A stretch of 64,000 nt of DNA from a virus. The stretch lies in the UHGV virus genome UHGV-0141727; one strand, 5' to 3'. This document shows positions 91-49,889 of this stretch, one piece after another; position 1 is the stretch's first letter; every line of letters starts with the position of its first letter. The notes under the pieces are model-generated. The model did no database searches. It was not told the DNA's origin and worked only from the letters and a program-made list of their open reading frames with translations. The translations under genes and the position numbers were made by a program.

Positions 91-588
91 TCATGGTTGA
101 ACCTGGATAACATCACCGTTCTTAACGGTAATGATTTTGTTCAGAAGAACGATTTGCGGGAAATTTCCAGCATACCAACTGAACGAACCAATCACTTCAT
201 ACTGGCCTGGTGGTACGTTTTCGAACTCAAATTTGCCTTGAGCATCTGTCAGGACAGTTCTGTCATATTCCGCAACCCTGCCGTCGATTATTTCTAAGGT
301 CTGAGTGTCGTAATCAATTTTGGGGGTATTTTTGATATATGAAGTATACGGACGCAGTATGATATTGGAGCCAGCACCAATCTTCACATCCCCTCCGCGA
401 GTTACTCCAAATAATTCCCCCTTAACCTTACCTGTGCCTTTTTTCGGCAATGCCTGATATTCCTCGACAGGGAATGCCGGGCGTTTAACAAACTGTTTTA
501 CTTGCTGAGGCTTGTTGTATGTCTGAACCGGAGCACATCCTGATAATGCAAATGCACAAACAATAGTCGCTAATATTGCTTTTTTCAT
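91..588 (-). CDS. lipoprotein with CarboxypepD_reg-like region
   Basis: ORF 91..624; internal ATG at 588 gives MKKAILATIVCAFALSGC signal peptide with lipobox; GQYEV-type motif. Confidence 0.5.
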   Translation of the reverse strand: MKKAILATIVCAFALSGCAPVQTYNKPQQVKQFVKRPAFPVEEYQALPKKGTGKVKGELFGVTRGGDVKIGAGSNIILRPYTSYIKNTPKIDYDTQTLEIIDGRVAEYDRTVLTDAQGKFEFENVPPGQYEVIGSFSWYAGNFPQIVLLNKIITVKNGDVIQVQP

Positions 589-781
589 AACTTTCTCTTT
601 TCTCAAATAAATAACGCAAACCAATAATAACTAGTGTTATCATTAACTTAGCGCAACTTAACTTTTCTGTTAGATAATACATTGAATAAAGTTAAAGATG
701 AATGCCGTTTAATAATGTTTGGTGTAATAGAAATCACATTCTCAACATAGTTATTGCTCTTTTTTCATTCGGAGCATGATT

Positions 782-1267
782 ATGATCAATAATGAACCTC
801 GCTGGCTTATTGAAGCCCGTAAAAATATTGGAGTCACCGAAATAAAAGGAGCGAAACACAATCCTGAGATCGTCCAGTTCTGGCGGGATATTAAGCGCAG
901 CGGAATTAAAGACGACGAAACGCCGTGGTGCGCTGCATTTGTTGGTGCAATGCTGGAACGTGTAGGTATCCGCTCAACAAGATTTGAGTCGGCAAAATCC
1001 TATCTGGATTGGGGCGAGAAATTAGATACACCGGCATACGGATGTATCGTTGTATTTACTCGCGCAGGCGGTGGGCATGTAGGCTTTGTTGTCGGACGCC
1101 GCGCCAATGGCGATCTGCTTGTCTTGGGTGGGAACCAGGGGGATGCTGTTAATATTCGCGCATTCCCAACATCAAGAGTGTCTGGCTATCGCTGGCCTGC
1201 TGGCGAACCACGCAATACAGCTCTGTTACCAGTCGGAGACGCAGCAACCTCAACTAATGAGGCATAA
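782..1267 (+). CDS. cell-wall peptidase (CHAP/NlpC-P60-like Cys-His), probable endolysin-type hydrolase
   Basis: ORF 776..1267; WCAAFVG Cys and GGHVGFVV His motifs; GGAG 7 nt upstream of ATG 782. Confidence 0.5.
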   Translation: MINNEPRWLIEARKNIGVTEIKGAKHNPEIVQFWRDIKRSGIKDDETPWCAAFVGAMLERVGIRSTRFESAKSYLDWGEKLDTPAYGCIVVFTRAGGGHVGFVVGRRANGDLLVLGGNQGDAVNIRAFPTSRVSGYRWPAGEPRNTALLPVGDAATSTNEA

Positions 1268-4000: not shown

Positions 4001-4999
4001 TCACATCCTCTTAGACACAAAGATCAGCGGAGTCACCGTCTTGTTCTCTTTCACCGGTATTTCTTGTTGTTTATTGGCTGATATTGGCAGACCATAAGTG
4101 GCATTAGCCCCTAGGGATTCAAGCATCGCTGCGACAATGCGTGCATCATCCTCTGACTGCATACGGCAGAGCGCCCGGCGCTGTTCTGCGCTGATAAAAA
4201 CAGGCATTTCCTGGATAGCATCACGCAAAATACGGCGGCATTTCTTCGCGTTCTCCCCCTGGCTTTCCATCATCGCGGCCTGGTCGCGTAGTTTGTCGCG
4301 AAGCTGCATATTTTCCACTTCAAGATGTATCAGTTCCGATTCCAGAGCTTCACGCTGTGCTGATTCAATCATTGCTTGTTGACTTTGCATTTGTGCAAAG
4401 TGATGAACAATATCTGTAGCCTGATTGTCAGTGAAACCTTGATCCATCAGCGACGTGTGCATAACAGCTTCACGCTCTTCAACGGACTCCATCATCGGTA
4501 TCTGTTTATCGAGGCTGATATAGTTCGGCACGGTAACGTAATCAAATCCATGAAAGGAGTTTACTATTGACACGAAAGAATCAGGTCCAATAGTCGCCCA
4601 TGACCAACCGCCAGCATTTGAGTTGATCAATCCTTGAACAATATGCCCTGTATATGAATCAAGAATTTCTTGGGTGTGCGTAATGACACCATTATCGTCA
4701 ATAGAAATATCAACTGTTCTGTTAGATGGCACATTTTCCAGAAGAAGAGGCTTACCATCCATCATAACAACGCAAACCTCTGGCAAATCTAGTGATTTAG
4801 TTTTGTTGTAATACATCGAGCGGCGACCATGACCGTAATATCCAAATAGCTCACCAAGAGCCATGCGCTCTTTAACTAGCGGTGATGTTATGGTTTTTCG
4901 CACAGCCTCAATAATGTATTTTCGGTTGTTCTGCGGTGTATGTTTGCGGATTTTCTCTACCAGGGAGAAGCGATCCGTAACGGTATTCAGTGATTGCAT
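4001..4999 (-). CDS. head morphogenesis protein (prohead protease/scaffold-like by size and position)
   Basis: ORF 332 aa immediately downstream of portal-size gene; coiled-coil C-terminal half. Confidence 0.3.
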   Translation of the reverse strand: MQSLNTVTDRFSLVEKIRKHTPQNNRKYIIEAVRKTITSPLVKERMALGELFGYYGHGRRSMYYNKTKSLDLPEVCVVMMDGKPLLLENVPSNRTVDISIDDNGVITHTQEILDSYTGHIVQGLINSNAGGWSWATIGPDSFVSIVNSFHGFDYVTVPNYISLDKQIPMMESVEEREAVMHTSLMDQGFTDNQATDIVHHFAQMQSQQAMIESAQREALESELIHLEVENMQLRDKLRDQAAMMESQGENAKKCRRILRDAIQEMPVFISAEQRRALCRMQSEDDARIVAAMLESLGANATYGLPISANKQQEIPVKENKTVTPLIFVSKRM

Positions 5000-5012: not shown

Positions 5013-6698
5013 TTAATTATTGCTCATCACAAATTTTGCAAAGTTGATTAATTGTTCTTGCGTCCAGTTTTCCGGATCGTCACCGGACGACAACGGCGCG
5101 GATTCGTACATACCATGCTCGTTGTTTTGCTCTGATTCATTCGCCTTAAACTCTTTGATCATTACGTTGAGAGTGTCATCGTCGATACGAAGCTGTTCGG
5201 TGAACAGATAGCGCATAAACGCGTCGCTACCCGCCAGTTTCGGGTTGTTCTGGATCTGGTCCATTATTTGCGAGATGACAGCTACGAAGTTGGCGCGCGC
5301 ATCCAGCTCTCGGTTTTCCTCTTCCTGGATAGCTGTGTTCATTGAGTTGAATTGCACGTCATAAGGACGGTTTTTTTCGGTGTAAACCTTCCCGTATTTA
5401 TAAGCGAGGTGAATGTCATGAAGCCGATAAATAGTCCGCTGGGCGGCCTGTCTGATCCAGTTCGCGCGTAATGCGGCCTGGATAGCTGTTTGCTGCCAAC
5501 CGCCTTCTCCAAGCCCCCCACTCATCTGATCAGCCCAGCCAAGCATTGTTGCGTCAATGCCGAGGCTTGCCGCGAGCTGTCGGAGATGAAACATAACGTC
5601 TTCGATACCACTGATATCTGCGGGTATAGATTGCGTATCAATGGTGATCCCGTTCTTCCCATCCCCCATGACAGGTATCAGATGGTTAAGTACAGATGGG
5701 AGAGCATTAGAATTAATTGACCGTTGCGCTACGAGGTCGCTATGGCGCTTCAGTGCCTGGCTGACCCCGCGCGTATAATTCGCCGCGTTTACCGGATCTA
5801 TCGTGTTCGTTGTGAGTGCAATCAGGCGATCAATTTTTGCAGCGTTGTTTCGCGTTGCTTTCAGCGCAGCAAGCGCGGCACATAAATTCAGGTAGGGTTC
5901 ATAACTGTATTCAAGAAACGACGTACCGTAGTTCTGTGTCTCCATTAACGGCTTGTCCTGCTGTTCACTAAGCAAGGAATAGCCTGTAGTGCCGTAAGTT
6001 ACTGGCATTACTTTATGCTGAGGCGTCCAGTACGGGTTTTTCATGGAAACCAGATTCCACGGCTCGGTTATAACTCTGCGCAAAGTATGCGTGTCCAGAA
6101 TGTAATCACCGCTGAATCCGACAAGTTGGCTACCGCGATAAAACTCCTGAACGAAATGAGGGAGCGTGTAATAGCTCGACTCAATTCCAGTTATCCCCTT
6201 CCCTTGCTCTGCATATGGACGGATATACGACACACCGAAAATAGCCATGATCATGGCCCACGATGGAAGGCCATCATTAATCATTGAGCTTAAATCAGCG
6301 GTCAATTCCTCACATCGACTTACAGCCTCCTTATCCGCCCCATTTTTCGGAGCGAGAATAAATGCGAGGCCTGTTTTTTTTGATGGAGCCAGAGAATGCG
6401 CAATGTGAATGTTTAATGCTGTGGAGATAGTCGGACTTTTCGCCATCGTCTCCAGTATGTTGTATTTTTGCAGGCGGTCACTCGGTAATTCTGCCGATAT
6501 AGATACTGTATCCGCCGCGCTTGTCATTCCATCGCTATTGCTCCCCAGGATGCCTGGACGCAAGGCGGACAGGCCAGAACGAGCAACGACGCTATGCCCG
6601 CTCGCAAATACGACCGGATCGGCAGGCGTAACATCACCACCGCTGAAGGCTTTCTTCAATGCCGACAGAAAGCCCTTGTTTTTGTCTTTCGTTGCCAT
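5013..6698 (-). CDS. portal-like virion protein
   Basis: ORF 561 aa, portal-sized, first gene of head operon; assignment by size and synteny only. Confidence 0.35.
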   Translation of the reverse strand: MATKDKNKGFLSALKKAFSGGDVTPADPVVFASGHSVVARSGLSALRPGILGSNSDGMTSAADTVSISAELPSDRLQKYNILETMAKSPTISTALNIHIAHSLAPSKKTGLAFILAPKNGADKEAVSRCEELTADLSSMINDGLPSWAMIMAIFGVSYIRPYAEQGKGITGIESSYYTLPHFVQEFYRGSQLVGFSGDYILDTHTLRRVITEPWNLVSMKNPYWTPQHKVMPVTYGTTGYSLLSEQQDKPLMETQNYGTSFLEYSYEPYLNLCAALAALKATRNNAAKIDRLIALTTNTIDPVNAANYTRGVSQALKRHSDLVAQRSINSNALPSVLNHLIPVMGDGKNGITIDTQSIPADISGIEDVMFHLRQLAASLGIDATMLGWADQMSGGLGEGGWQQTAIQAALRANWIRQAAQRTIYRLHDIHLAYKYGKVYTEKNRPYDVQFNSMNTAIQEEENRELDARANFVAVISQIMDQIQNNPKLAGSDAFMRYLFTEQLRIDDDTLNVMIKEFKANESEQNNEHGMYESAPLSSGDDPENWTQEQLINFAKFVMSNN

Positions 6699-6930
6699 GA
6701 TTCACCGCAAAAGGTTTCCGATTTCGTGGCAGCTTATCCAGTGTGTGATTTCATCAGTAATTTTTCGTTGTTTTCACTATATGCTGATGTTTTTTCATAT
6801 GCGGAAATGCTTTTCCAAAAACGCAACCGCCAAACAAAGAAGTTATGTTTATAAACATTTTTGTTGTGTTTTATATCTTTTGTGTTATTATTCTTGTCGC
6901 CCATGATGGATAAATTGCATAAGGAAACTT

Positions 6931-7113
6931 GTGAAGTATTCAGAGTTCAAACGCTGGTTAATCCAGCAAGGGGCAGAGTTCAGGAAAGCGCCAGGTGGCG
7001 GCAGTCATCAGAAAGTGAACCTGAACGGAAAGCGGTCGGTTTTCCCGGACCACGGTTCAAAGGAAATGCCTGAACCGCTACGCAAGAAAATAATGAAGGA
7101 CCTGGGGCTTTAA
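6931..7113 (+). CDS. hicA: HicA toxin (mRNA interferase)
   Basis: 60-aa ORF MKYSEFKRWL...GGGSHQK; GTG start with AAGGA RBS; followed by hicB. Confidence 0.8.
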   Translation: MKYSEFKRWLIQQGAEFRKAPGGGSHQKVNLNGKRSVFPDHGSKEMPEPLRKKIMKDLGL

Positions 7114-7143
7114 GCCCCAGCCTTTTTCACTAGGAGCTTCTCT

Positions 7144-7575
7144 ATGTTTAACTATCCGGTAAAACTGGAGCGCGACGACAATACCGGCGCGTATGTCGTA
7201 TCATGCCGCGACCTACCATTGTTTAATTCCGTGGGTGACTCAGTTGAAGAAGCGTTGCTTGAGGCTGGTTATGGATTGGTCGCAGCGGTTGCGATTGAGA
7301 TTGAAGAACGCCGACCTGTTCCCACTGGTAGCGAGCCAAAAGAAGGTGAGTACGTTGTCTCTTTGCCAGTGCTACCAGCAATGAAGGCTGCACTCCACAA
7401 CGCGATGATAGAAACCGGCACACGCAAAGCAGAGTTGGCGCGCAAACTCGGAAAAAATGGAACACAGATTGATCGGCTTCTCGACGTCGAACATTCATCG
7501 AAAGTTGAAACTGTCGAGTTGGCACTGCATCAACTGAATAAAAATATCGCCGTATCTGTCACACCAATGCGGTGA
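7144..7575 (+). CDS. hicB: HicB antitoxin with C-terminal DNA-binding region
   Basis: 143-aa ORF immediately downstream of hicA. Confidence 0.8.
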   Translation: MFNYPVKLERDDNTGAYVVSCRDLPLFNSVGDSVEEALLEAGYGLVAAVAIEIEERRPVPTGSEPKEGEYVVSLPVLPAMKAALHNAMIETGTRKAELARKLGKNGTQIDRLLDVEHSSKVETVELALHQLNKNIAVSVTPMR

Positions 7576-7687
7576 CTGCTCCCCGCCCTGGCTGGGCGAG
7601 GATTTACGGGGTATTTGTTAAAAACGCTCTATTCAAAGAAGAAATACCGAATCCCCCGGAGGTTATCCGGGGTGTCCGGTCGCCAGG

Positions 7688-9073
7688 TCAGGTTTCCAGC
7701 CCAAAATCGCTTTGTTCTGTTTTGGCTTCGAACATCGTGAAGTTAAGCCCTTTCCCCTCTCCATGTTCCAGTTCAATCTCATTAGAAACAGCGGTCAAAA
7801 TACTACGTAGATCGACATCTCCACCGCCGAACATATCGCCCAACGCCTGCTGTTTATGAATCAGTTCGTCGTTGATTTTTTGTGCCATTTTTTTGAATGC
7901 AGCCCCCATGCGCTTCGCGCTTCGATTATTTGCCACGATGAATAGCGCCAACGCCTCAGCTTCCGGCGTGCTATCACCGAAGAGTCCGCGCTGGGCTATC
8001 ACCTCTTCCACTGCCTGACCGTTGTCTTTGGCTTCACGAACAAGGTTAATCGCGTCCTGGAGTGCTGCTATAGCCTGTTTATCCAGACCGTTCACCTGCT
8101 CTATACCATCAACCAGACCAGTTACAGCATCATGATGTGCATCGCCAGAAATCGACTGCATTTGCGCAAAGTCACTGGCTGCTGTATTAAGCGCGGTCAG
8201 GATATTGCGCATTTCCGGATCCGGTTCTTCCGCCACAAGCCGAACAAGTCGCTCATCCTTATAGGCTTTGGCAAAAATCGCATTCTGAATGCGATCGATA
8301 AGCTGTTTCGTTGGACGTCCATCGGCTGTAAGCAAACCTGCCGTCGCGGTATCGCCTATTTCGTGCAAAAACGCACGAATAAACGCATCATTGGACCGCG
8401 CCAGTAGATTGCCATCATCTGAAGGATTAAATAGCGCCATGACGCTCTCAGTGAGAAATTGCGCATCCGCATACGCTTTCTCACTTGCAGCCATCTCTTG
8501 CAGATCGCTGATGTTTGAGTCGCGTGCAAATTGAGCACGATCAACGTCAGTGAGGCGCTCGCGAACCAGTACAGGCATCACCATTGCCCTGACGTCTTCG
8601 GGATTAAGGCCAAACTCTTTAGCGTGATCGATAAGATATTGTCGGTAATCTTCAGCCTGCCCTTGTTCATAAGCACGCCAGATTCCCATGCTTCGACCAT
8701 TACCAGACTCAACGACATTATCCGGACCAACAATCGGGGAACCATGACTACTCATACCCGAATCAGTGAGTTGTGCCGGGCGTAAATTGGCGGCGATACG
8801 GTTAACCTGGAGCTTACTTGACAGTCGGGTGCGATCGCGAGGCTGGAGTTCCTCCGGAAATGACGGATTTATACTTCCGTCCAGGTTGTTAGAAATGATG
8901 AGCTTTTTGGCATCAATAACCTTGAACGCTGTTTTAACTTCGTCGCCTTTGCTGGTGACGACATAGCTGCTACGCCCCAACTTCGTCTCTTGCTTTTCAA
9001 GAGATGACACCACAGCGATAACCCCCTCAATGTTCGCTGCGGCTAGAAGTGCTGATGTTACGTTTTGAGTCAC
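7688..9073 (-). CDS. hypothetical virion-associated protein (last gene of Dar-like cluster)
   Basis: ORF 461 aa; position after DarA/DdrA-like genes. Confidence 0.3.
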   Translation of the reverse strand: MTQNVTSALLAAANIEGVIAVVSSLEKQETKLGRSSYVVTSKGDEVKTAFKVIDAKKLIISNNLDGSINPSFPEELQPRDRTRLSSKLQVNRIAANLRPAQLTDSGMSSHGSPIVGPDNVVESGNGRSMGIWRAYEQGQAEDYRQYLIDHAKEFGLNPEDVRAMVMPVLVRERLTDVDRAQFARDSNISDLQEMAASEKAYADAQFLTESVMALFNPSDDGNLLARSNDAFIRAFLHEIGDTATAGLLTADGRPTKQLIDRIQNAIFAKAYKDERLVRLVAEEPDPEMRNILTALNTAASDFAQMQSISGDAHHDAVTGLVDGIEQVNGLDKQAIAALQDAINLVREAKDNGQAVEEVIAQRGLFGDSTPEAEALALFIVANNRSAKRMGAAFKKMAQKINDELIHKQQALGDMFGGGDVDLRSILTAVSNEIELEHGEGKGLNFTMFEAKTEQSDFGLET

Positions 9074-9142
9074 AATTAACCACCTTTCTGTAAAAAAGGC
9101 AGTGTAAAAAGTGTGTTATTTCGCTGACTATTTTAAGAAGAA

Positions 9143-9168
9143 AGGGGCATTCTGCCCCTCTCTTTTAC
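9143..9168. terminator. hairpin AGGGGCA/TGCCCCT with flanking T-rich tracts
   Basis: stem-loop between 9165..9536 gene end and 7688..9073 gene start. Confidence 0.3.
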
Positions 9169-9536
9169 GCTGCATACCCGTTAGCTGAAACCCAGTTTAC
9201 GGTCTGTTCTTTGGCCTGGTCGAGTGTCAAAAATTCACCAATATATTGAGATATGCCTCTCAAAGCATCGATGAACTCCATTTGTGATGATTTAGTAAAT
9301 GCACCACTAAGGAAGTCAACAACAATTTTAGGCGTTTCTTGTGCCGCCGGTTGCACTTCCTCTTCTTGCTGTTGCGCTGGATTATTCGATGAACCAAGCC
9401 CCAGCTTCATCATCACTTCAACTATCCGCACGCCAATAGTGACACGTTGTACCGCAGTCGCGCTTTTTTGCGCTGACATCAGCTCAGACAGTTCTTTGCC
9501 TAAGCTAAGGCGCTCCGTTACTGATATTTTCACCAC
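9165..9536 (-). CDS. small protein, P1 DdrA-like position
   Basis: ORF 123 aa downstream of DarA-sized gene. Confidence 0.3.
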   Translation of the reverse strand: MVKISVTERLSLGKELSELMSAQKSATAVQRVTIGVRIVEVMMKLGLGSSNNPAQQQEEEVQPAAQETPKIVVDFLSGAFTKSSQMEFIDALRGISQYIGEFLTLDQAKEQTVNWVSANGYAA

Positions 9537-11482
9537 ACGCCCCCTTGTTGTATCTCTGCCAAAATGTTGATCAGGTGATCGGCTGCCGCACCAACAAGTG
9601 ACTCGTTCTCATCATATCGACCTGCGTTGATAAGAACATTAGCTGCCTCCTGAATGCGATCAAACTCCGCTCTAATCACCGTCAAATCACGGGACGTAAA
9701 CTGCAACGGCACGGATTTCAGATATTCCAGCGCACTGTCCGCCTCCTGATCAGCCTCACTAACGACTGGCCCATCTGAACCTGTATCAGACTCTTGGGGG
9801 GATTCAGGTTCAGACTCAGGTACTGGTACTGGTACTGCTTCCGGTGCCTGATCTAATGTCTGTTCAGCTTCGACTACTTCTGATTGATTCTGAAGCGCGT
9901 CATAGATATCCATTATAAAAAGGTTCTCCCCATCTCCAAGTGGATAAGCGACGTTAGGAAATGCTTTGCGGAAGAGGATTTTTATCTGCGCCTTAAAGGT
10001 TTTCAAGTCGCTTCCAAACAGATCAACATAGCCATCAATATGGTTCGACATACTGGACGCAACCAATTCGCCTGCAATCTCTTTCAATTCATCGTCACCA
10101 GGGAGATATAGCAACTCGTACTGACTGACTTCTTCGTCTGTCAGTTTGCGGTCATACGTAATGATTCCGTGACGAGCATATTCGTAATACGGATCAGCCT
10201 GATCAGGACGGTCAAGTACAGCTTTATTTCCTTCAGGAACCGCACCAACACCCGCCGGGCGAGATTGGAGCGCATAGCGATATTTACCAACCTCCAGGGG
10301 ATCAGGATGTGATTCTGGTTGTGGCTCCTGTTCAGGCTGCGGCTGATCAGTTGGCTCAGGCTGGCCCGGCAACACATCCACTTTGTATTGATCAGCATTA
10401 TGTTCACGATAGGCTTTAAGTAATTTGGTTGCAGCGTCCGCTGAACTCCCACCTTTAACAGCACTGACATCAATACTGAAATTGCCTTCTGGTGCCTCAA
10501 TCGTGACAAAGCTATCACTGCCTGACGTGACATACTTAACTACAGCACCATTATCCAGCGTTGTTTGGCCTTCTGTAGCAAGATTATGTTTTATGTGTCG
10601 CAGTTGATCATTGAAGGCACGCTCTTTAGTTCCTTGGCTCTTAGCTGACAATAAATTATCGCGTTTAGCCTGCAATTCCGCGTTAAGGGCTTTTTGTGCG
10701 TCTAATTTATTCTGCATATCATTGAGTGTTGAGCGTTTCTCTGCCAGCCCCCGCTGTGCGTCTTCAACCTGCTCAATCAGCACAGAACGTTCTTCTGCCA
10801 GCTTGTCGGCTTCATTGAGATACCCCTCAATATCAGCCTTCATTTTGTCTTGGCGCTCCTTTGCTTTTTTGAATTTTGCACTATTACGCTCAATGAGGTT
10901 AGAAAGCGCCTGGCATACCTGGCTCAGAGATACATCACGCCCACCGATTGGCGCAACAACATGCGTAACGTTTCTTTTGTTAAGAAGAAACTGAAACGCA
11001 ACCAGCTCGTCATCCCCTTTAATTCTTGTGCCGTCTGCGGTTGGAGAATGGAAAATTATGCTTGTCGTTTGCCCATCGGTTAGAGGTATTTGTGCTGTTA
11101 CAACAGGGATATTAGCAACCCGGCGCACGCGCCCAATGATTGCCCCACCGATACTATTACGTCCGTCTTCATATTCACCTGCCTCATCCGTACCCGCAGC
11201 AATGTCAGTGCCATTCAGGCCGCGATTAAGCGCCCGGACAAATGCTCGCATTGTTTGCGCTAACCGCAATTTTGTTGTGGTTATAGCTTCGAACATTGCC
11301 TCATTGGTAGTTACCAAAATTTCGTTGCCCATATAGGCCAGCTCGATATCTTCCAGCGTCGCAGGCTCGATAAGTAAATCATCCTCGGTGATATCTTCCG
11401 CCACCCAACGATTAGGCGTATATCCAGTGAGCGTATCTGCAAAAGTGGACTGGATATTTATTCGAATAGGTTTCTTTATCAT
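9530..11482 (-). CDS. large internal head/antirestriction-type protein, P1 DarA-like by size and synteny
   Basis: ORF 650 aa with central coiled coil and acidic Pro/Glu-rich linkers; follows LydA/LydB/Hdf-like genes as in the P1 darA operon. Confidence 0.35.
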   Translation of the reverse strand: MIKKPIRINIQSTFADTLTGYTPNRWVAEDITEDDLLIEPATLEDIELAYMGNEILVTTNEAMFEAITTTKLRLAQTMRAFVRALNRGLNGTDIAAGTDEAGEYEDGRNSIGGAIIGRVRRVANIPVVTAQIPLTDGQTTSIIFHSPTADGTRIKGDDELVAFQFLLNKRNVTHVVAPIGGRDVSLSQVCQALSNLIERNSAKFKKAKERQDKMKADIEGYLNEADKLAEERSVLIEQVEDAQRGLAEKRSTLNDMQNKLDAQKALNAELQAKRDNLLSAKSQGTKERAFNDQLRHIKHNLATEGQTTLDNGAVVKYVTSGSDSFVTIEAPEGNFSIDVSAVKGGSSADAATKLLKAYREHNADQYKVDVLPGQPEPTDQPQPEQEPQPESHPDPLEVGKYRYALQSRPAGVGAVPEGNKAVLDRPDQADPYYEYARHGIITYDRKLTDEEVSQYELLYLPGDDELKEIAGELVASSMSNHIDGYVDLFGSDLKTFKAQIKILFRKAFPNVAYPLGDGENLFIMDIYDALQNQSEVVEAEQTLDQAPEAVPVPVPESEPESPQESDTGSDGPVVSEADQEADSALEYLKSVPLQFTSRDLTVIRAEFDRIQEAANVLINAGRYDENESLVGAAADHLINILAEIQQGGVW

Positions 11483-12096
11483 GCATCTTCCTCCAGGCGC
11501 GCTATTTCTTCTTTCAATACGCGAGTTTTCGCCAGTTCCTGCGCCATCTCGGTTCTAATGATTTCAGTTTCTCTTGTTGCGCGGTCTGAATTACCTTGCA
11601 CCTGATTTAATTTTTCTTTGGCCCTTTCAATATCCTCGCGGATCGCATCGCGAGATTCCTTTGCCTCTGCTAGTTTCTGCGCATTGGACTTAACGCCTTT
11701 TATTTTCTTATTCCCATCATCAATATCTTTCGCCGCACGAGCTAACTTACGCGCCAATGATTTCTGAAATGATGATGCGCCTTTATTAAATAAAGCAGCC
11801 AGTGATTGCCCTAAAGCCGTCAGCGTTTTAACAGGCTTGAAAGGAACAATTTTTCCGTTCAGTTTTACACCAGAAATATCACCAGTATCATTAACCTGAA
11901 CGTCCATCGTCTGCTCATCGATTCCGATAAGGGTAAACGTGCGCGTCATGATCCCGTCTTTCTTCCTGCCATTACTGGCGGGGATCACCCTCGCTATCTT
12001 GTAGCCTCCTTTACCGATTTCTTTGACGAGTTTTGCCAGCCCCTTTTCGTTTAACTCATCATAATTAAGAAGAACATAATTAGACTTATTTGACAT
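11479..12096 (-). CDS. P1 Hdf-like protein
   Basis: ORF 11479..12120; ATG at 12096 with AAGGAG RBS; coiled-coil C-terminus. Confidence 0.3.
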   Translation of the reverse strand: MSNKSNYVLLNYDELNEKGLAKLVKEIGKGGYKIARVIPASNGRKKDGIMTRTFTLIGIDEQTMDVQVNDTGDISGVKLNGKIVPFKPVKTLTALGQSLAALFNKGASSFQKSLARKLARAAKDIDDGNKKIKGVKSNAQKLAEAKESRDAIREDIERAKEKLNQVQGNSDRATRETEIIRTEMAQELAKTRVLKEEIARLEEDA

Positions 12097-12532
12097 TCCA
12101 GTCTCCTTCACACTTTTCAATCATAAACTGGCGTTCTATGCAGTCATTGATAGGGAAAATGCGATAAAGCGGATTCAGGCGGCAATTACCGTTAGTCAAT
12201 GTGACCTTTAGATCCCACTTCGCTGGCTCAAGATATTTCGTGTCGATGAGCAAATATTCTTCTCTCTCACCGCGTTTTGATGCGTCAACTGGTCTTGTTT
12301 TCCCCGAAATAACCACAGATGGATTTTTCAAGTCCTGCAACCAATATTCGATTTGTGCATTGCTTACCCAGCTTCGCTTAACGCGAAGCGACACAGGAAA
12401 CGCTATAGCAGACTCTTTCACTACAGCTTCGCCAATGCTCAAAATATCAACACTCTTGCGACGAAATAAGAAACGGTCAATAACGGCAACAAATGCCATG
12501 ATAAAAATGAAATAATTTCCAAAGTCACCCAT
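12086..12532 (-). CDS. LydB-like antiholin
   Basis: ORF 148 aa with one N-terminal TM segment; same size as P1 LydB (147 aa) and same position after holin-like gene. Confidence 0.4.
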   Translation of the reverse strand: MGDFGNYFIFIMAFVAVIDRFLFRRKSVDILSIGEAVVKESAIAFPVSLRVKRSWVSNAQIEYWLQDLKNPSVVISGKTRPVDASKRGEREEYLLIDTKYLEPAKWDLKVTLTNGNCRLNPLYRIFPINDCIERQFMIEKCEGDWNVK

Positions 12533-12858
12533 TACTTCTCTCCACCTTTTCCCCCACTCGCTATTACGCTTAAGAGATTCAAGACGTTACTAGCTCTGGA
12601 CTTCAAGCCCTGTAAAATTTCACTTCCGTTGTTACTGGCAATCAGAACAACGCAGTAAATGATGCCTTCCGGCCATTCATAGCTATCAGCCACCCAAAAT
12701 CCCGCAAGCCCAGCAGTTACCGCAGTAAACAATTCACTCGCGAGGTTGAGCAGTGACGCAGAAATGCGCCCGTCTCTAACTCCGAGAAGGAATACGCCGG
12801 TTCCACTCAGCAGGGATGTTATGACTGCTACAGCCAGATTTTCATAATCTGCAAACAT
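12532..12858 (-). CDS. LydA-like holin
   Basis: ORF 108 aa, multi-TM small membrane protein; same size as P1 LydA. Confidence 0.45.
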   Translation of the reverse strand: MFADYENLAVAVITSLLSGTGVFLLGVRDGRISASLLNLASELFTAVTAGLAGFWVADSYEWPEGIIYCVVLIASNNGSEILQGLKSRASNVLNLLSVIASGGKGGEK

Positions 12859-12940
12859 ACCCCTCCAGAAATGACGTTTAACGCGGCTTCAACTTATCCA
12901 GTTTGTTATTTCCCGACTAAATGCCATTCACACAAAATGG

Positions 12941-13156
12941 ATGCATATGATGGCCCGGTGGTCCGTAAACCTCGTCACTCAGAGCGTGGAGGATGCCAAA
13001 TTCGCGTATCAACAAAATGGTCCAAACACGGCTTTAAAGAGAAATACGCTTGAATGCGCAAGATGTGAGCTGATTCTTGAGGACAAAATGATGACATGTG
13101 AGTCTTCACAAGCGTCATTCAGTGAATATAATACCGACTCTCTCAGATACTACTAA
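12941..13156 (+). CDS. small hypothetical protein
   Basis: ORF followed by strong terminator 13172-13207. Confidence 0.2.
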   Translation: MHMMARWSVNLVTQSVEDAKFAYQQNGPNTALKRNTLECARCELILEDKMMTCESSQASFSEYNTDSLRYY

Positions 13157-13171
13157 CTGGGTGTTCATTAT

Positions 13172-13207
13172 GCCCGCCGTCATTGACTAGACGGCGGGCT
13201 TTTTTTG
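13172..13207 (+). terminator. rho-independent terminator
   Basis: 9-bp stem GCCCGCCGT/ACGGCGGGC followed by TTTTTTTG. Confidence 0.6.
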
Positions 13208-13322
13208 TGCCGAAGGATAGCGTTGCTCAAAAAAAACACAAAACCGCACGCTAATGAAGCCCTCAACAAAAGAGGGCTTGAAATATCAAAAAAAATAGTG
13301 CTGATTGGATTGTTATGATTGT

Positions 13323-13745
13323 TTATGCAGGCATCTCAGGCCATGAGATATCTGCATCAACAGAAGTGTCAACTCTATTAAGAAGAACTCTATACCTCTT
13401 TAACTTTGTCAACATTTCTATTTCCTCATCAGTGGCAATATCCATATCAACAGCATCCTGAAGCGTTGATATTTTTATGCTCACATCATTCATAAGACTA
13501 CTTTTGGTGTTTTCAGCAATGCTGACTCTCTCCTCTAAGCTCATAGGTTGTGGGTCAGATAACATTGGATAACCATCGCCATTTGCAATTATTATTTTCC
13601 CATTGCCATACCCTGATAACAGTTCATCATATAAGTCATCAGGTATATGTACAGCATCGGACGGCCATGAACCGTTTTTATCGTAATCTTCTTTTAGTCT
13701 ATCGTCGTAGAAACCACCAGTCTCTTTGCTGTAATACTTTGCCAT
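13323..13745 (-). CDS. tail fibre assembly chaperone
   Basis: 140-aa ORF directly downstream of tail fibre gene; typical Tfa size and N-terminal region. Confidence 0.6.
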   Translation of the reverse strand: MAKYYSKETGGFYDDRLKEDYDKNGSWPSDAVHIPDDLYDELLSGYGNGKIIIANGDGYPMLSDPQPMSLEERVSIAENTKSSLMNDVSIKISTLQDAVDMDIATDEEIEMLTKLKRYRVLLNRVDTSVDADISWPEMPA

Positions 13746-13776
13746 TTAAAAACCTTCATTCTAATTAGCTATATTT

Positions 13777-16700
13777 TTAATACCCATAAGCAACATACTG
13801 TGCATATATTTTATCAGTGGAGCTACTTTTTACTGTAAAACCAGTGGCAGAGTTGTTGTATGTATAAAGAATTGCATTAACAGCATTCCCGCTATGAGGT
13901 GAAATCACAACTGCCGCACACGACTCAGGAAAAGAAGTCGGAAATTTAACTACGCTTCCTGGAGTAACAGCCGCTATAGTCCCCCACTGCATCATCACCT
14001 TAGTTGATGTATCCTTATGCCATCCATGAATGTTGGCATATGCAGTATTTTTAGCCTGATATTTCGTGTTGAAATTACTATAGTTACCAGGGGTAATCTG
14101 ACCAGCGGCAGATAAATTCCCCATAACCCTTACATGACCATCAGCACGTCCTAATTCTACGCGACCATCACCGCCATCTATCTTTAATGGAGTGTAAACG
14201 ACATCACCATTAACATTTTGCCCAGTGGTTGATATCTGGAAACTATATCCAGTATTAGTTATTAGGAATCCATAGTTATTATTATAAGTTAGGCGTATAG
14301 CATTTTGGCTGCTGGATATAATTTCACCGGTAACAGTACCACCTGTTGTTGGTAACGCACCAACATGACTTGCCGTTAATGTGATATCTGCAGAACCATC
14401 AAAAGCCACGCCACTTATTTTTCTGGCAGTTTTTAACTTTGTAGCTGTAGCTGCATTGCCACTTGTATTTTGATTCCCGGCAATATTAACGCCCGGAAGA
14501 TTGATGTTTGCTGAACCATCAAACGAAACCCCGCCTATTGTGCGTGCTGTTTGCAGTTTTGTGGCAGTTGCAGCATTGCCGGTAGTGCTCTGATTGCCTG
14601 TTTTATTCACGCCCGGCAGGTCGATGTTTGCGGTGCCATTAAATGAAACACCACCAATAGTTCTTGCCGTTTGTAATTTCGTTGCAGACGCCGCGTTTCC
14701 GGTTGTGTTCTGGTTGCCCGTGGTATTTACACCAGGGATGGAATCTTTCGATGTGTAGACCTGCGCCCACTCAGACCAACTAGCTGTATCAGTATCTCGT
14801 CGCGAACGTACATGTACAGGCGCATGAGCACCACTTGTACCGCTCCAACCTATGAACAACTCGCCTTCACCAGCGGCTGTTGCGCCCTTAAGATGAAGCA
14901 CATTCCCGTAAGCAGAAGGATAGCCGTTGTTGTACGCCTCATACATCTGCAATCCAGTGGTAGCACCTTGCGTTGTACTGGTGAGCGCAGTAACACGCCC
15001 TCTGGACGTAATTGTTGGTATCGAAATGTTCGCAGAACCATCAAACTTAACACCGTTGATTGTGCGGGCTGTTTGCAGTTTTGTAGCGGTTGCCGCATTA
15101 CCTGTTGTGTTCTGGTTACCGGCAATGTTCACACCCGGCAGGTTGATATTGGCGCTGCCATCAAATGCCACCCCGCCGATTGTGCGGGCCGTCTGAAGTT
15201 TCGTTGCGGTTGCCGCATTACCGGTTGTGCTCTGATTACCCGTTTTATTCACGCCAGGCAGGTCGATATTAGCACTGCCATCAAATGACACTCCACCGAT
15301 CGTTCGAGCTGTCTTGAGCTTTGTGGCAGTATCGGCGTTCCCGGTCAGCGTACCAGTAATCCCACCGCCAACTTTTACGCCGTTACCGATGGACACCAAC
15401 CCAGTTCTTAAGTTTATAGAAAATGGTCTTAATGGCCCGATGTCACCATTTTCACCCTCCCCTTCATTTGTCGGGATAAGATGAAGATATTCCTCGGATC
15501 TCCTGAAGATAAGGCCAAAGGCCTGGTTAAATATTCGAAGGGCATTTATTGTGCCAATTTTTAGCTGCCCCCCCATTGTGTCGCCAGAACGCTGAACGGC
15601 GTTACCAGCTTGAGAAGCAATATCCGTTAAGCCAAGATCTTCAGGGGTCAGAGTAATATCTGCCGAACCGTCAAATGCCACACCGTTAATCTTTCTGGCT
15701 GTTTTTAATTTCGTCGCAGTATCGGCGTTCCCGGTCAGCGTACCAGTGATCCCCGCGCTGAAAGTCTGGCGTGCACTCCATGTGTTAGCCGTGCTCAACA
15801 GGGGGATTTTTTCACCGCTGGTACCGAGTTCTCTTAAACCAAGGTATTGGATAACAGCCAGAGTGCTTGTTTTAGCCAGAATATCGCGACCGACTGACGT
15901 TAAATCAGTCTGGGCTACAGTGTCTGTTCCGGTAAAGTACGGTAATTTATTTGCCCCCGTCGCCAGGCCAGCGAGCGCGGTTAAGGTTGCGTCGAGAGGC
16001 TGCTTACCTGCAAGGGCATTTGTCATTGTAGTCGCAAAGTTCGGGTCATTGCCCAGTGCTGCGGCAAGCTCATTCAGGGTATCAAGAGCTTCTGGTGATG
16101 AGCCGACCAATGCAGAAATAGCGGCACGAACATAAGCGGTTGTTGCAATCTGAGTGTTGTTCGTACCTTGTGACGCCGTAGGAGCTGTTGGAACCCCCGT
16201 AAATGCCGGGCTTAATAACGGCGCTTTAAGAGCTAACGCATCATTAATCGTCTGGCTAAACTGGGGATCATTGTTTATTGCATCTGCAATTTTTTTCAGC
16301 GTATCCAACGCTGAAGGAGAACCATCAATAAGGGCGGTTATTGCGGCCTGAACAAAGGCAGTGTTTGCGATTTGTGTACTGTTTGTACCTTGTTCCGGAG
16401 TTGGAGATTTAGGTATACCAATAAACTCCGGGCTATCAACCGGAGCTTTTAGTTTGTTTAACGTGCTGATAGCAAGAGGTGTTGCGGCTTTATATTCTTC
16501 GTCACTATCCAAAGCACTGGAAAACTCAACACCAACAGCACGATTAGCACGATATTCAGTGCTAATCATATCTGCGGTAACGGCTTGAGCATTGTCAGGC
16601 ACGATCACGCGGCATAGCTCAATCTGGTTAGATGCTATTTCCTCATCAACGAGAGCAATAATTCTCGCTGCGCTAATATCCGATGAACTATCTACCTGGC

Positions 16701-17046
16701 TGGTTTTCACTCCATGTTCGTAATTAGCTTCAAGAACGATGATTGTCGTTACACCAGCTTCTACAGGAACAAGAACATCACTGACTTGCTGCACGGATAT
16801 CTGACATTTACCCACGTCAATTGAAGCCGCCCCTTTTCCCTCTGTTTTCTCGGATGTAATCCGCACAAACAGACCATCCCCTGGCACCGGGTCAAACCCA
16901 CAGTACACTCCGGGCAGAACGATATTTTTCATCTTCCTGTTTAGAGCTTCGGTGCTATACAGCTCAAAGTATTGCATGTCTGCAATTAGTGGAGCGGAAA
17001 TGTCCGAAGATAAGGTGACAATATTCTTTACTTTATCTGCGCACAT
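13777..17046 (-). CDS. tail fibre protein
   Basis: 1089-aa ORF with SPxFTGxPTAPT motifs and repeated GNxxTTGNAATATKLQTARTIGGVxFDGSANI units. Confidence 0.75.
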   Translation of the reverse strand: MCADKVKNIVTLSSDISAPLIADMQYFELYSTEALNRKMKNIVLPGVYCGFDPVPGDGLFVRITSEKTEGKGAASIDVGKCQISVQQVSDVLVPVEAGVTTIIVLEANYEHGVKTSQVDSSSDISAARIIALVDEEIASNQIELCRVIVPDNAQAVTADMISTEYRANRAVGVEFSSALDSDEEYKAATPLAISTLNKLKAPVDSPEFIGIPKSPTPEQGTNSTQIANTAFVQAAITALIDGSPSALDTLKKIADAINNDPQFSQTINDALALKAPLLSPAFTGVPTAPTASQGTNNTQIATTAYVRAAISALVGSSPEALDTLNELAAALGNDPNFATTMTNALAGKQPLDATLTALAGLATGANKLPYFTGTDTVAQTDLTSVGRDILAKTSTLAVIQYLGLRELGTSGEKIPLLSTANTWSARQTFSAGITGTLTGNADTATKLKTARKINGVAFDGSADITLTPEDLGLTDIASQAGNAVQRSGDTMGGQLKIGTINALRIFNQAFGLIFRRSEEYLHLIPTNEGEGENGDIGPLRPFSINLRTGLVSIGNGVKVGGGITGTLTGNADTATKLKTARTIGGVSFDGSANIDLPGVNKTGNQSTTGNAATATKLQTARTIGGVAFDGSANINLPGVNIAGNQNTTGNAATATKLQTARTINGVKFDGSANISIPTITSRGRVTALTSTTQGATTGLQMYEAYNNGYPSAYGNVLHLKGATAAGEGELFIGWSGTSGAHAPVHVRSRRDTDTASWSEWAQVYTSKDSIPGVNTTGNQNTTGNAASATKLQTARTIGGVSFNGTANIDLPGVNKTGNQSTTGNAATATKLQTARTIGGVSFDGSANINLPGVNIAGNQNTSGNAATATKLKTARKISGVAFDGSADITLTASHVGALPTTGGTVTGEIISSSQNAIRLTYNNNYGFLITNTGYSFQISTTGQNVNGDVVYTPLKIDGGDGRVELGRADGHVRVMGNLSAAGQITPGNYSNFNTKYQAKNTAYANIHGWHKDTSTKVMMQWGTIAAVTPGSVVKFPTSFPESCAAVVISPHSGNAVNAILYTYNNSATGFTVKSSSTDKIYAQYVAYGY
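14400..14740. repeat. tandem ~87-bp coding repeats within tail fibre gene (block 2)
   Basis: repeated DNA and peptide units; similar to block 15000-15370. Confidence 0.5.
15000..15370. repeat. tandem ~87-bp coding repeats within tail fibre gene (block 1)
   Basis: repeated DNA and peptide units. Confidence 0.5.
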
Positions 17047-17048
17047 AA

Positions 17049-17495
17049 TTATCCCTCGACCTGTTCAATGGTCATGAGCAAGCTGTATCGCTTACCTTTG
17101 AATAAGGTGTCCTGTTGAGTGCAAACAACCCCAAAAGCCTGATCCTCTGCATCTACGAGAACCAGCGTATTGAAATCGTAAGGTGTATCGTCCGGCATCG
17201 TTTCTTGTGGAAAAGCGGCATTAATCGTAATGACACCATCGAGGCTGGAAAGAATGAGATTGGATTCAGCAAAATGCTGTGCATCACTTAACTTGAAGTC
17301 GAGCGGAATATCAGAAATAGTCCAGCCACCAGCACTATTTACCGTCACAAGATCTGACTTGCACCAATAAGCCTTTGTCATAACAAAACGCTCACCCCTG
17401 CCGATTGCAGACTCTGCACGGCGAGAGTAGTAGTAAGAAAGGAGTTGCGCCTTGTAAATACTTGAATCGCTTTGAGATTTTAAAGTTTCAGCCAT
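17049..17495 (-). CDS. tail fibre/baseplate-associated protein
   Basis: ORF 148 aa immediately upstream of tail fibre gene. Confidence 0.3.
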   Translation of the reverse strand: MAETLKSQSDSSIYKAQLLSYYYSRRAESAIGRGERFVMTKAYWCKSDLVTVNSAGGWTISDIPLDFKLSDAQHFAESNLILSSLDGVITINAAFPQETMPDDTPYDFNTLVLVDAEDQAFGVVCTQQDTLFKGKRYSLLMTIEQVEG

Positions 17496-17611
17496 AAGAA
17501 CATAGCCCCTTTAACAAGCAATAAATCGAAGGGCAGTATGTTCAGTTTGTGATTTCCGGTGGTCTTCTGTTTTAAGAAATGGCCCCACCCAGTTTGGCGG
17601 GGCCTGGTTTG

Positions 17612-24869: not shown

Positions 24870-25081
24870 GGCGTTGAGGTATTCTGTTGTGGTTGCCTCG
24901 TCTTCTGCCGGATTGATGTCTGAATATTTCAGGGCATCTTTCACAGTAGGTGCATGAAACTGAATTTCTATTTCAGGCTGTGAAGGCAATGGGAATTTGG
25001 GAATGTTCAAGGATTCCTCCAGAAAAGTCGGTACTCGTTTGGCTGGAGGATAGGGAGTGTGTGATTTTGACTTTAACCTAT

Positions 25082-33926: not shown

Positions 33927-34036
33927 GGTTAAACCCTAAATTCGGGCGCGGCGTGAAGATTCTTTTGACGAGGTGACAATACTCACTTTGTTATTTAGTC
34001 AATAGCATTAGAAAAATAATTTTCGTTAACAATCTT

Positions 34037-36708: not shown

Positions 36709-36777
36709 CTAACACCTCCTTTTTCTTAAATCTTCTCCACTTTGTGATTTTCACTCTTCAGATTTCTTACTTCTCAT

Positions 36778-45403: not shown

Positions 45404-45540
45404 AGGTCGATTTATCAGGTATAGAGGGGAATTGTCTGGAGATTGTGATTTGTTTGTCGCCAGGTAATTTCTTTAGATTGATGAGGCGAAATCTATCGGA
45501 GGTGCGGTATCATTGTTCGGTCAGAACTTAAGGAGAAACA

Positions 45541-49659: not shown

Positions 49660-49889
49660 TGCTTTGGCGTTATGACTCCCTACCGCGCATCGGCTGAAAG
49701 TTAGTCGTCAAAAGAACCTTCAACGGGAGCCGTTTGCGTAATGGATTTTGTCCAGATTGTGATTTCCAGAATAGTGTCAACAATTTTTTTGAATTTTTTA
49801 TTCGCTCTGAATTTGGCCTAGGTCATTTTGGCGTAGATGTTTGCTTTTGTAACATAAAGCTTCAGTTTGTTTACATGAAGGATGGTTTT

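Follow-up and report, generated by a model that had tools for sequence, protein, structure and literature searches.

A probable late dar/lyd operon, with a short form of ddrB, in a D6-like Escherichia phage-plasmid of the P1 family

In bacteriophage P1, six Dar proteins are packed into the phage head, exit it along with the DNA, and act in cis to shield this DNA from type I restriction systems and BREX (PMC12707154). DarA and Hdf are required for all the other Dar proteins to be incorporated and also affect head size (PMC12810830, PMC9024508). Cryo-electron microscopy of P1 places 55 DarA-Hdf pairs at the penton-hexon junctions, in contact with the DNA, and DarA is found there without its first ~69 residues, which are probably removed by Pro (PMC12810830). 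According to Gonzales et al., DdrB aids the addition of DarB, and DdrA is an antagonist of EcoA (PMC9024508). On the P1 map these functions belong to the operon LPdar-lydA-lydB-hdf-darA-ddrA-ddrB-hxr, in which the P1 record annotates LydA as a holin and LydB as a holin antagonist. The subject of this report is the interval from 7688 to 12858 in a 64,000-nucleotide (nt) stretch of the virus genome UHGV-0141727, the whole of which is called the window. This interval is very probably the late dar/lyd operon of an Escherichia phage-plasmid that belongs to the P1 family and resembles D6. The system itself is not new, and public records already carry its annotation; the promoter motif and the short DdrB described below are details of one lineage, not a novel type of system.

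Six open reading frames (ORFs), all on the minus strand, fill the interval and encode proteins of 108, 148, 205 or 213, 650, 123 and 461 amino acids (aa), exactly the sizes and order given by the original prediction, which had been made from the sequence alone. Counted from lydA, the first five genes are contiguous or overlap by 1 to 11 nt, and a gap of 91 nt separates the ddrA homologue from the 461-aa gene. Because highly significant homologues were found for each of the six, they are real genes and not chance ORFs. Their order on a single strand, lydA-lydB-hdf-darA-ddrA-ddrB, is that of the P1 LPdar operon map, and all of the proteins are homologous to those of P1 (confirmed in pairwise comparisons for LydA, LydB, Hdf and DdrA), with 34-41% identity for the first five and 64% for the N-terminal part of DdrB. 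The proposed likeness to the P1 genes lydA-lydB-hdf-darA-ddrA is therefore borne out gene by gene. Two points of the original prediction needed amendment: the genes are not fused clusters but separate ORFs within one operon, as in P1, and the 461-aa gene, said to have no known P1 counterpart of that size, corresponds to ddrB.

The similarity of the 650-aa protein (9530-11482, minus strand) to DarA, on which the original prediction turned, was found at several levels. The protein matches the NCBIfam equivalog NF052326 (anti_RE_DarA) over the full length of the model with 1084.7 bits, against a cutoff of 350 bits, and like P1 DarA it carries both Pfam domains, DarA_N (7.8e-40) and DarA_C (4.3e-19). 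P1 darA aligns with it at 38% identity and 94% coverage (tblastn, E=1e-120), the solved structure of P1 DarA (PDB 9ukm, chain I) matches with E=8.6e-124, and orf27 of Escherichia phage D6 is 78% identical. Directly upstream lies hdf, a paralogue of darA, which shares the DarA_N domain (Pfam, 4e-18) as its P1 counterpart does. The hdf product also matches the Hdf-like PHROG (2.7e-72), is 40% identical to P1 Hdf, and matches chain H (Hdf) of PDB 9ukm with E=4e-25. The hdf ORF (11479-12120, minus strand) encodes 213 aa from a TTG at 12120 or 205 aa from an ATG at 12096; the ATG is the start chosen by the Prokaryotic Genome Annotation Pipeline (PGAP) in a 99% identical relative, which gives a gene at 11479-12096. 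Directly downstream of darA, the ddrA homologue (9165-9536, minus strand) encodes 123 aa, or 122 aa from its second GTG; its product matches the DdrA-like PHROG (6e-44) and is 35% identical to P1 DdrA (E=1e-25).

The lysis pair stands at the head of the operon, where the stop codon of lydA and the start codon of lydB overlap as TAATG, lydB being directly downstream of lydA. The 108-aa product of lydA (12532-12858, minus strand) is 41% identical to P1 LydA (E=4e-25) and matches the PHROG holin family phrog_1527 (1.3e-38). The 148-aa product of lydB (12086-12532, minus strand) is 34% identical to P1 LydB and matches the Pfam family LydB (PF16084, 1.5e-24) and the PHROG 'lysis determining protein' (4e-68). 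A hydropathy scan agrees with the earlier description of these two proteins as having several and a single transmembrane segment, respectively: LydA has two clear hydrophobic segments, at residues 8-27 and 43-57, and LydB has one, at its N-terminus (residues 3-24). Residues 64-75 of LydA, judged by eye, are possibly a third hydrophobic segment, one that the scan did not flag. A candidate endolysin, a CHAP-domain protein with weaker matches to PHROG endolysins, is encoded elsewhere in the window (776-1267, plus strand).

A close relative is D6 (NC_050154.1, 26333-31478, orf30-orf25), which has the same six genes in the same order and strand, each named in the record after its P1 counterpart; the locus is 80% identical to D6 at the nucleotide level over 5.2 kb. 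Closer still are at least seven E. coli plasmids of ~89-93 kb that are 99% identical at the locus, in which PGAP calls darA and a 'DarA-related' protein. Among 5426 complete E. coli genomes, 100 have some match to the locus, always on plasmids. Over its first 25 kb the window shares 96% identity with phage-plasmids of E. marmotae and E. coli, and in ~90-kb phage-plasmids of these two species (NZ_JBYRJZ010000003.1, NZ_LR890273.1, NZ_CP056699.1) nucleotide identity over 6900-13300, which includes a HicAB toxin-antitoxin pair, is 99%. There is no substantial difference from these phage-plasmids, except for a sub-group represented by NZ_CP173545.1 that has a different ddrB allele. The window contains neither darB, whose product is a methyltransferase/helicase of about 2250 aa, nor ulx; its longest ORF encodes 1287 aa. 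NZ_LR890273 and the window are colinear starting at the window's first base. In that record a 2278-aa SNF2-related gene begins 22 nt to the left of window position 1, and a 144-aa gene comes after it. In D6 this position is taken by darB and ulx, and the first 60 nt of the window are homologous to the D6 darB leader.

The last gene of the operon (7688-9073, minus strand) encodes a short DdrB of 461 aa, consisting of a ddrB-ParB domain (Pfam PF18763, 2.5e-40, residues 42-173), as in P1, and a helical region. Its identity to P1 DdrB (995 aa) is 64% across residues 2-442 of the latter, higher than that of any other protein in the cluster to its P1 counterpart. In P1, ddrB begins 12 nt after ddrA and its product ends in a zincin-like peptidase, whereas here 91 nt with a hairpin and a promoter-like motif separate ddrB from ddrA, and the metallopeptidase half is absent. 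When residues 441-995 of P1 DdrB were used as a tblastn query, the window, D6 (1-50000) and 34 kb of a close relative all lacked a significant match. The best match to the C-terminal half (residues 552-600, E=0.11, 36% identity over 50 aa) falls within ddrA, at 9192-9332 on the minus strand, and is probably due to chance. The short form recurs elsewhere: D6 orf25 is a 454-aa short DdrB, 90% identical, and in PLSDB, where full-length P1 DdrB found 442 records with at least 80% coverage (tblastn), ~119 records with 60-80% identity align over P1 DdrB residues 2-442 or 2-445 only. A Vibrio plasmid in PLSDB aligns over the same span as the short forms, with 59.6% identity. On these alignments the short DdrB is the standard form in the D6 lineage and not a private truncation. 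Iyer et al. described the C-terminal half of P1 DdrB as a zincin-like metallopeptidase and proposed that the protein processes itself before packaging (PMC5512222). Because this peptidase is absent, the short DdrB cannot process itself in the proposed way, and its existence supports the published prediction that the packaged effector is the ParB-like N-terminal part. The P1 frame iddB, antisense to ddrB, can be followed at 8103-8498 (plus strand) with 64% nominal identity, but it is broken by three stop codons, so iddB is not conserved as a gene; the P1 iddB may be a spurious call. The P1 genes lydC and hxr are absent here as well.

Comparison of the lydA, ddrB and darB leaders revealed a common motif, AAATMACAMACT-N3-TANNNT. 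With up to two mismatches allowed, it has ten sites in the window, every one of them on the minus strand; dinucleotide shuffles predict 0.41 (none of 100 shuffles reached ten). The pattern was refined partly on sites it then scores. Eight of the ten sites lie 27-50 nt upstream of the starts of minus-strand genes. In the operon itself, the site AAATAACAAACT-GGA-TAAGTT (12891-12911) is 32 nt upstream of the lydA ATG, and AAATAACACACT-TTT-TACACT (9101-9121) is 27 nt upstream of the ddrB GTG. Other sites are found in the leader of the off-window darB homologue (30-50), before the portal gene prt (6731-6751), before a 148-aa ORF (17049-17495) syntenic with the R-like gene of D6 (17535-17555), before a pmgB-like gene (25047-25067), before a 565-aa gene (33976-33996) and before a tail protein gene (45431-45451); the remaining two are at 36730-36750 and 49745-49765. 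The orthologous positions in D6, before darB, prt, ddrB, lydA and pmgB, also have the motif, the ddrB copy being in the ddrA-ddrB gap of D6. The motif is a candidate late-promoter signature of the D6 lineage and differs from the LPdar box annotated in P1. Sites resembling P1-type late promoters (AAGTnAnTT-N3-5-TAnnnT, or the looser AAGT...GCG) were scattered through the sequence without enrichment (28, against 21 expected) and were dropped from consideration, and a sigma-70 scan likewise gave no enrichment (14 sites, against 10.9 in shuffles).

Two hairpins flank ddrB. Directly after the ddrA stop codon, a GC-rich 12-bp hairpin resembling a terminator or attenuator (9143-9159, minus strand) has a predicted energy of -19.1 kcal/mol (z=-5.3; none of 200 shuffles was as stable); it was picked up by a terminator scan on the plus strand, and its minus-strand T-rich run was read from the sequence. 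After the ddrB stop codon, a terminator-like hairpin followed by a T-rich run (7646-7680, minus strand) has a predicted energy of -24.3 kcal/mol (z=-2.7), its inner stem having been found in the terminator scan. Because of the hairpin after ddrA and the separate copy of the motif, ddrB is probably a separate late transcription unit in this lineage. An Rfam scan of 6800-13800 gave sub-threshold matches only: IS009, in the tail-fibre assembly gene, scored 34.7 bits where the gathering score is 117.

It is tempting to go further and regard ddrB of the D6 lineage as an autonomous module that encodes a 461-aa, ParB-like, peptidase-less protein, is transcribed from a late promoter of its own located after a terminator-like hairpin, and is exchanged independently of its neighbours. 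The basis for independent exchange is the identity of DdrB to P1 (64%, against 34-41% for the adjacent proteins) together with an allele of 81% nucleotide identity and a shifted HicAB position in sister plasmids. This proposal is tentative, with the balance tipped slightly away from it. If it is true, the N-terminal half of DdrB would be the packaged, functional part, and AAATMACAMACT-N3-TANNNT would be a late-promoter box of the lineage that differs from that of P1.

This analysis established the identities of the six genes, their order, their domain content and their conservation in D6 and many plasmids; the timing of expression, head packaging and anti-restriction activity ascribed to the operon in this element would be carried over from P1. 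By homology with P1, the operon would be transcribed late in lytic growth, and the time of lysis would be set by the holin LydA and its antagonist LydB. Hdf and DarA would be joined through their helical domains and anchored to the procapsid's inner face, and DarA would be trimmed by the prohead protease. Together they would allow the head to be packed with DdrA and DdrB, and with Ulx and DarB from a second operon. The packed proteins would then be released from the head along with the DNA and, in the next host, would shield it in cis against type I restriction enzymes. Nothing was found that contradicts this P1 scheme for the element.

Several points nevertheless weigh against the assignment and the functions attached to it. 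No published experiment on anti-restriction or virion content was found for D6-like phages, and the window contains neither darB nor ulx. The Pfam model Phage_holin_3_3 (PF16083) scores LydA at 20.5 bits, below its gathering score of 28.4. Upstream of lydA, the P1 LPdar box (AAGTTACTT-N4-TACCAT, in which AAGTTACTT is the -22 box) has not been conserved, and the motif proposed in its place was partly fitted to its own sites. With half of the P1 protein absent, the role of DdrB may also differ from that in P1.

An unlikely alternative to a late operon that includes an anti-restriction system is that DarA and Hdf serve this lineage mainly in capsid morphogenesis or stabilisation, determining head size and reinforcing the penton-hexon junctions, with anti-restriction minor or absent. 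In P1, head size is determined by DarA and Hdf, whose 55 pairs brace the capsid (PMC12810830; table in PMC9024508), the genes described here adjoin those for portal and protease, and no data on anti-restriction were found for D6-like phages. However, the whole P1 Dar set is conserved, with DdrA and the N-terminal part of DdrB here and DarB and Ulx in relatives, and in P1 neither these two nor DdrA and DdrB have a known structural role besides anti-restriction. The structural and anti-restriction roles are, moreover, not exclusive in P1.

Upstream of lydA, the window differs from P1 and D6, both of which carry cin and an invertible tail-fibre segment there; in D6 this is the S/U segment, and it lies with cin directly upstream of that gene. 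Here a 464-nt spacer (12859-13322) is followed by single genes for tail-fibre assembly and tail fibre. The 228 nt of the spacer proximal to lydA (12859-13086) are homologous to the lydA-cin intergenic region of D6 and the first ~100 nt of cin, and a remnant of 24 Cin codons (13016-13087, plus strand) that is 71% identical to residues 11-34 of D6 Cin lies in the spacer as well. At 13003-13086, 84 nt match the start of P1 cin, the part of that gene that overlaps its annotated recombinational enhancer. A search of the window found no second cin and no lydC. As read from these remains, the element has lost the invertible tail-fibre switch that P1 and D6 possess, and a single fixed tail-fibre set (13323-13745 and 13777-17046) is left. 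In the rest of the same spacer, at 13105-13199 (plus strand), a sigma-70 promoter-like site close to consensus (TTCACA-16-TATAAT, 11 of 12 positions) is followed ~40 nt further on by a strong terminator, GCCCGCCGTC...GACGGCGGGC and then T7 (-27.6 kcal/mol, z=-4.4). The putative transcript of ~65 nt could be a small RNA, or the structure could be just a bidirectional terminator; it has no Rfam match, and no gene is annotated there in relatives.

Downstream of ddrB, the order of the head genes is that of D6, whose record annotates prt and pro as similar to P1 prt and pro. The portal gene prt (5013-6698, minus strand) encodes a product 94% identical to that of D6 (PHROG portal, 1e-225), and the prohead protease-like gene pro (4001-4999, minus strand) is 79% identical to D6 pro. 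The cargo of the interval between ddrB and prt varies: the window has HicA and HicB, a toxin-antitoxin pair (6931-7113 and 7144-7575, plus strand) on the opposite strand to ddrB, whereas D6 has two other genes there (a DUF4145 gene and orf23), and P1 has hxr, isaB and IS1. In sister plasmids (NZ_CP173545.1, 462-5841, compared with 6400-9700 of the window), a ddrB allele of 81% nucleotide identity adjoins prt, and genes for TnpB, HicAB, a helix-turn-helix protein and a DUF3944 protein lie between ddrB and ddrA. NZ_CP173545.1 also keeps, after HicB, a 36-nt piece of the 3' end of a ddrB of the window type (7727-7762). The rearranged surroundings of ddrB in the NZ_CP173545 group indicate that the flanks of ddrB are a site of cargo and a hot spot of recombination. 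Near the left end of the window, a lipoprotein-like ORF (91-587, minus strand; MKKAILATIVCAFALSGC...) lies between the CHAP-domain protein gene and the off-window darB leader; it has a sub-threshold match to a carboxypeptidase-regulatory domain, and the gene is absent from D6 at that spot.

The loss of cin and of the invertible tail-fibre segment, of which the 24-codon remnant is left, and the insertion of accessory cassettes nearby might suggest that the element is a defective plasmid prophage whose operon is no longer expressed or used. This is very improbable: all six ORFs are intact with coupled starts, the operon is 99% conserved among plasmids whose hosts and countries of origin are unrelated, D6 is a deposited phage genome with E. 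coli C600 as its recorded host, and the structural genes across the window are intact and share the upstream motif. The idea that the 461-aa gene is a decaying ddrB pseudogene, truncated when a deletion occurred or the HicAB cassette was inserted, would fit its coverage of 44% of P1 DdrB, the HicAB module directly downstream and the rearrangement of the region in relatives, but it is hardly tenable when the short form is intact in D6, recurs in the ~119 plasmid records, ends in a clean stop codon followed by a hairpin, is the most P1-conserved protein of the cluster and has left no remnant of a C-terminal half in the sequences searched.

As the late dar/lyd operon of a D6-like phage-plasmid, the locus would confirm that the plasmid-like element is a P1-family phage with a predicted capsid-borne anti-restriction kit; beyond annotation, this carries little weight. 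The shared upstream motif offers a testable handle on the regulation of late genes in D6-like phage-plasmids. An anti-restriction kit of this type would be relevant to the host range of the element and to its movement between restriction-proficient strains of Escherichia.

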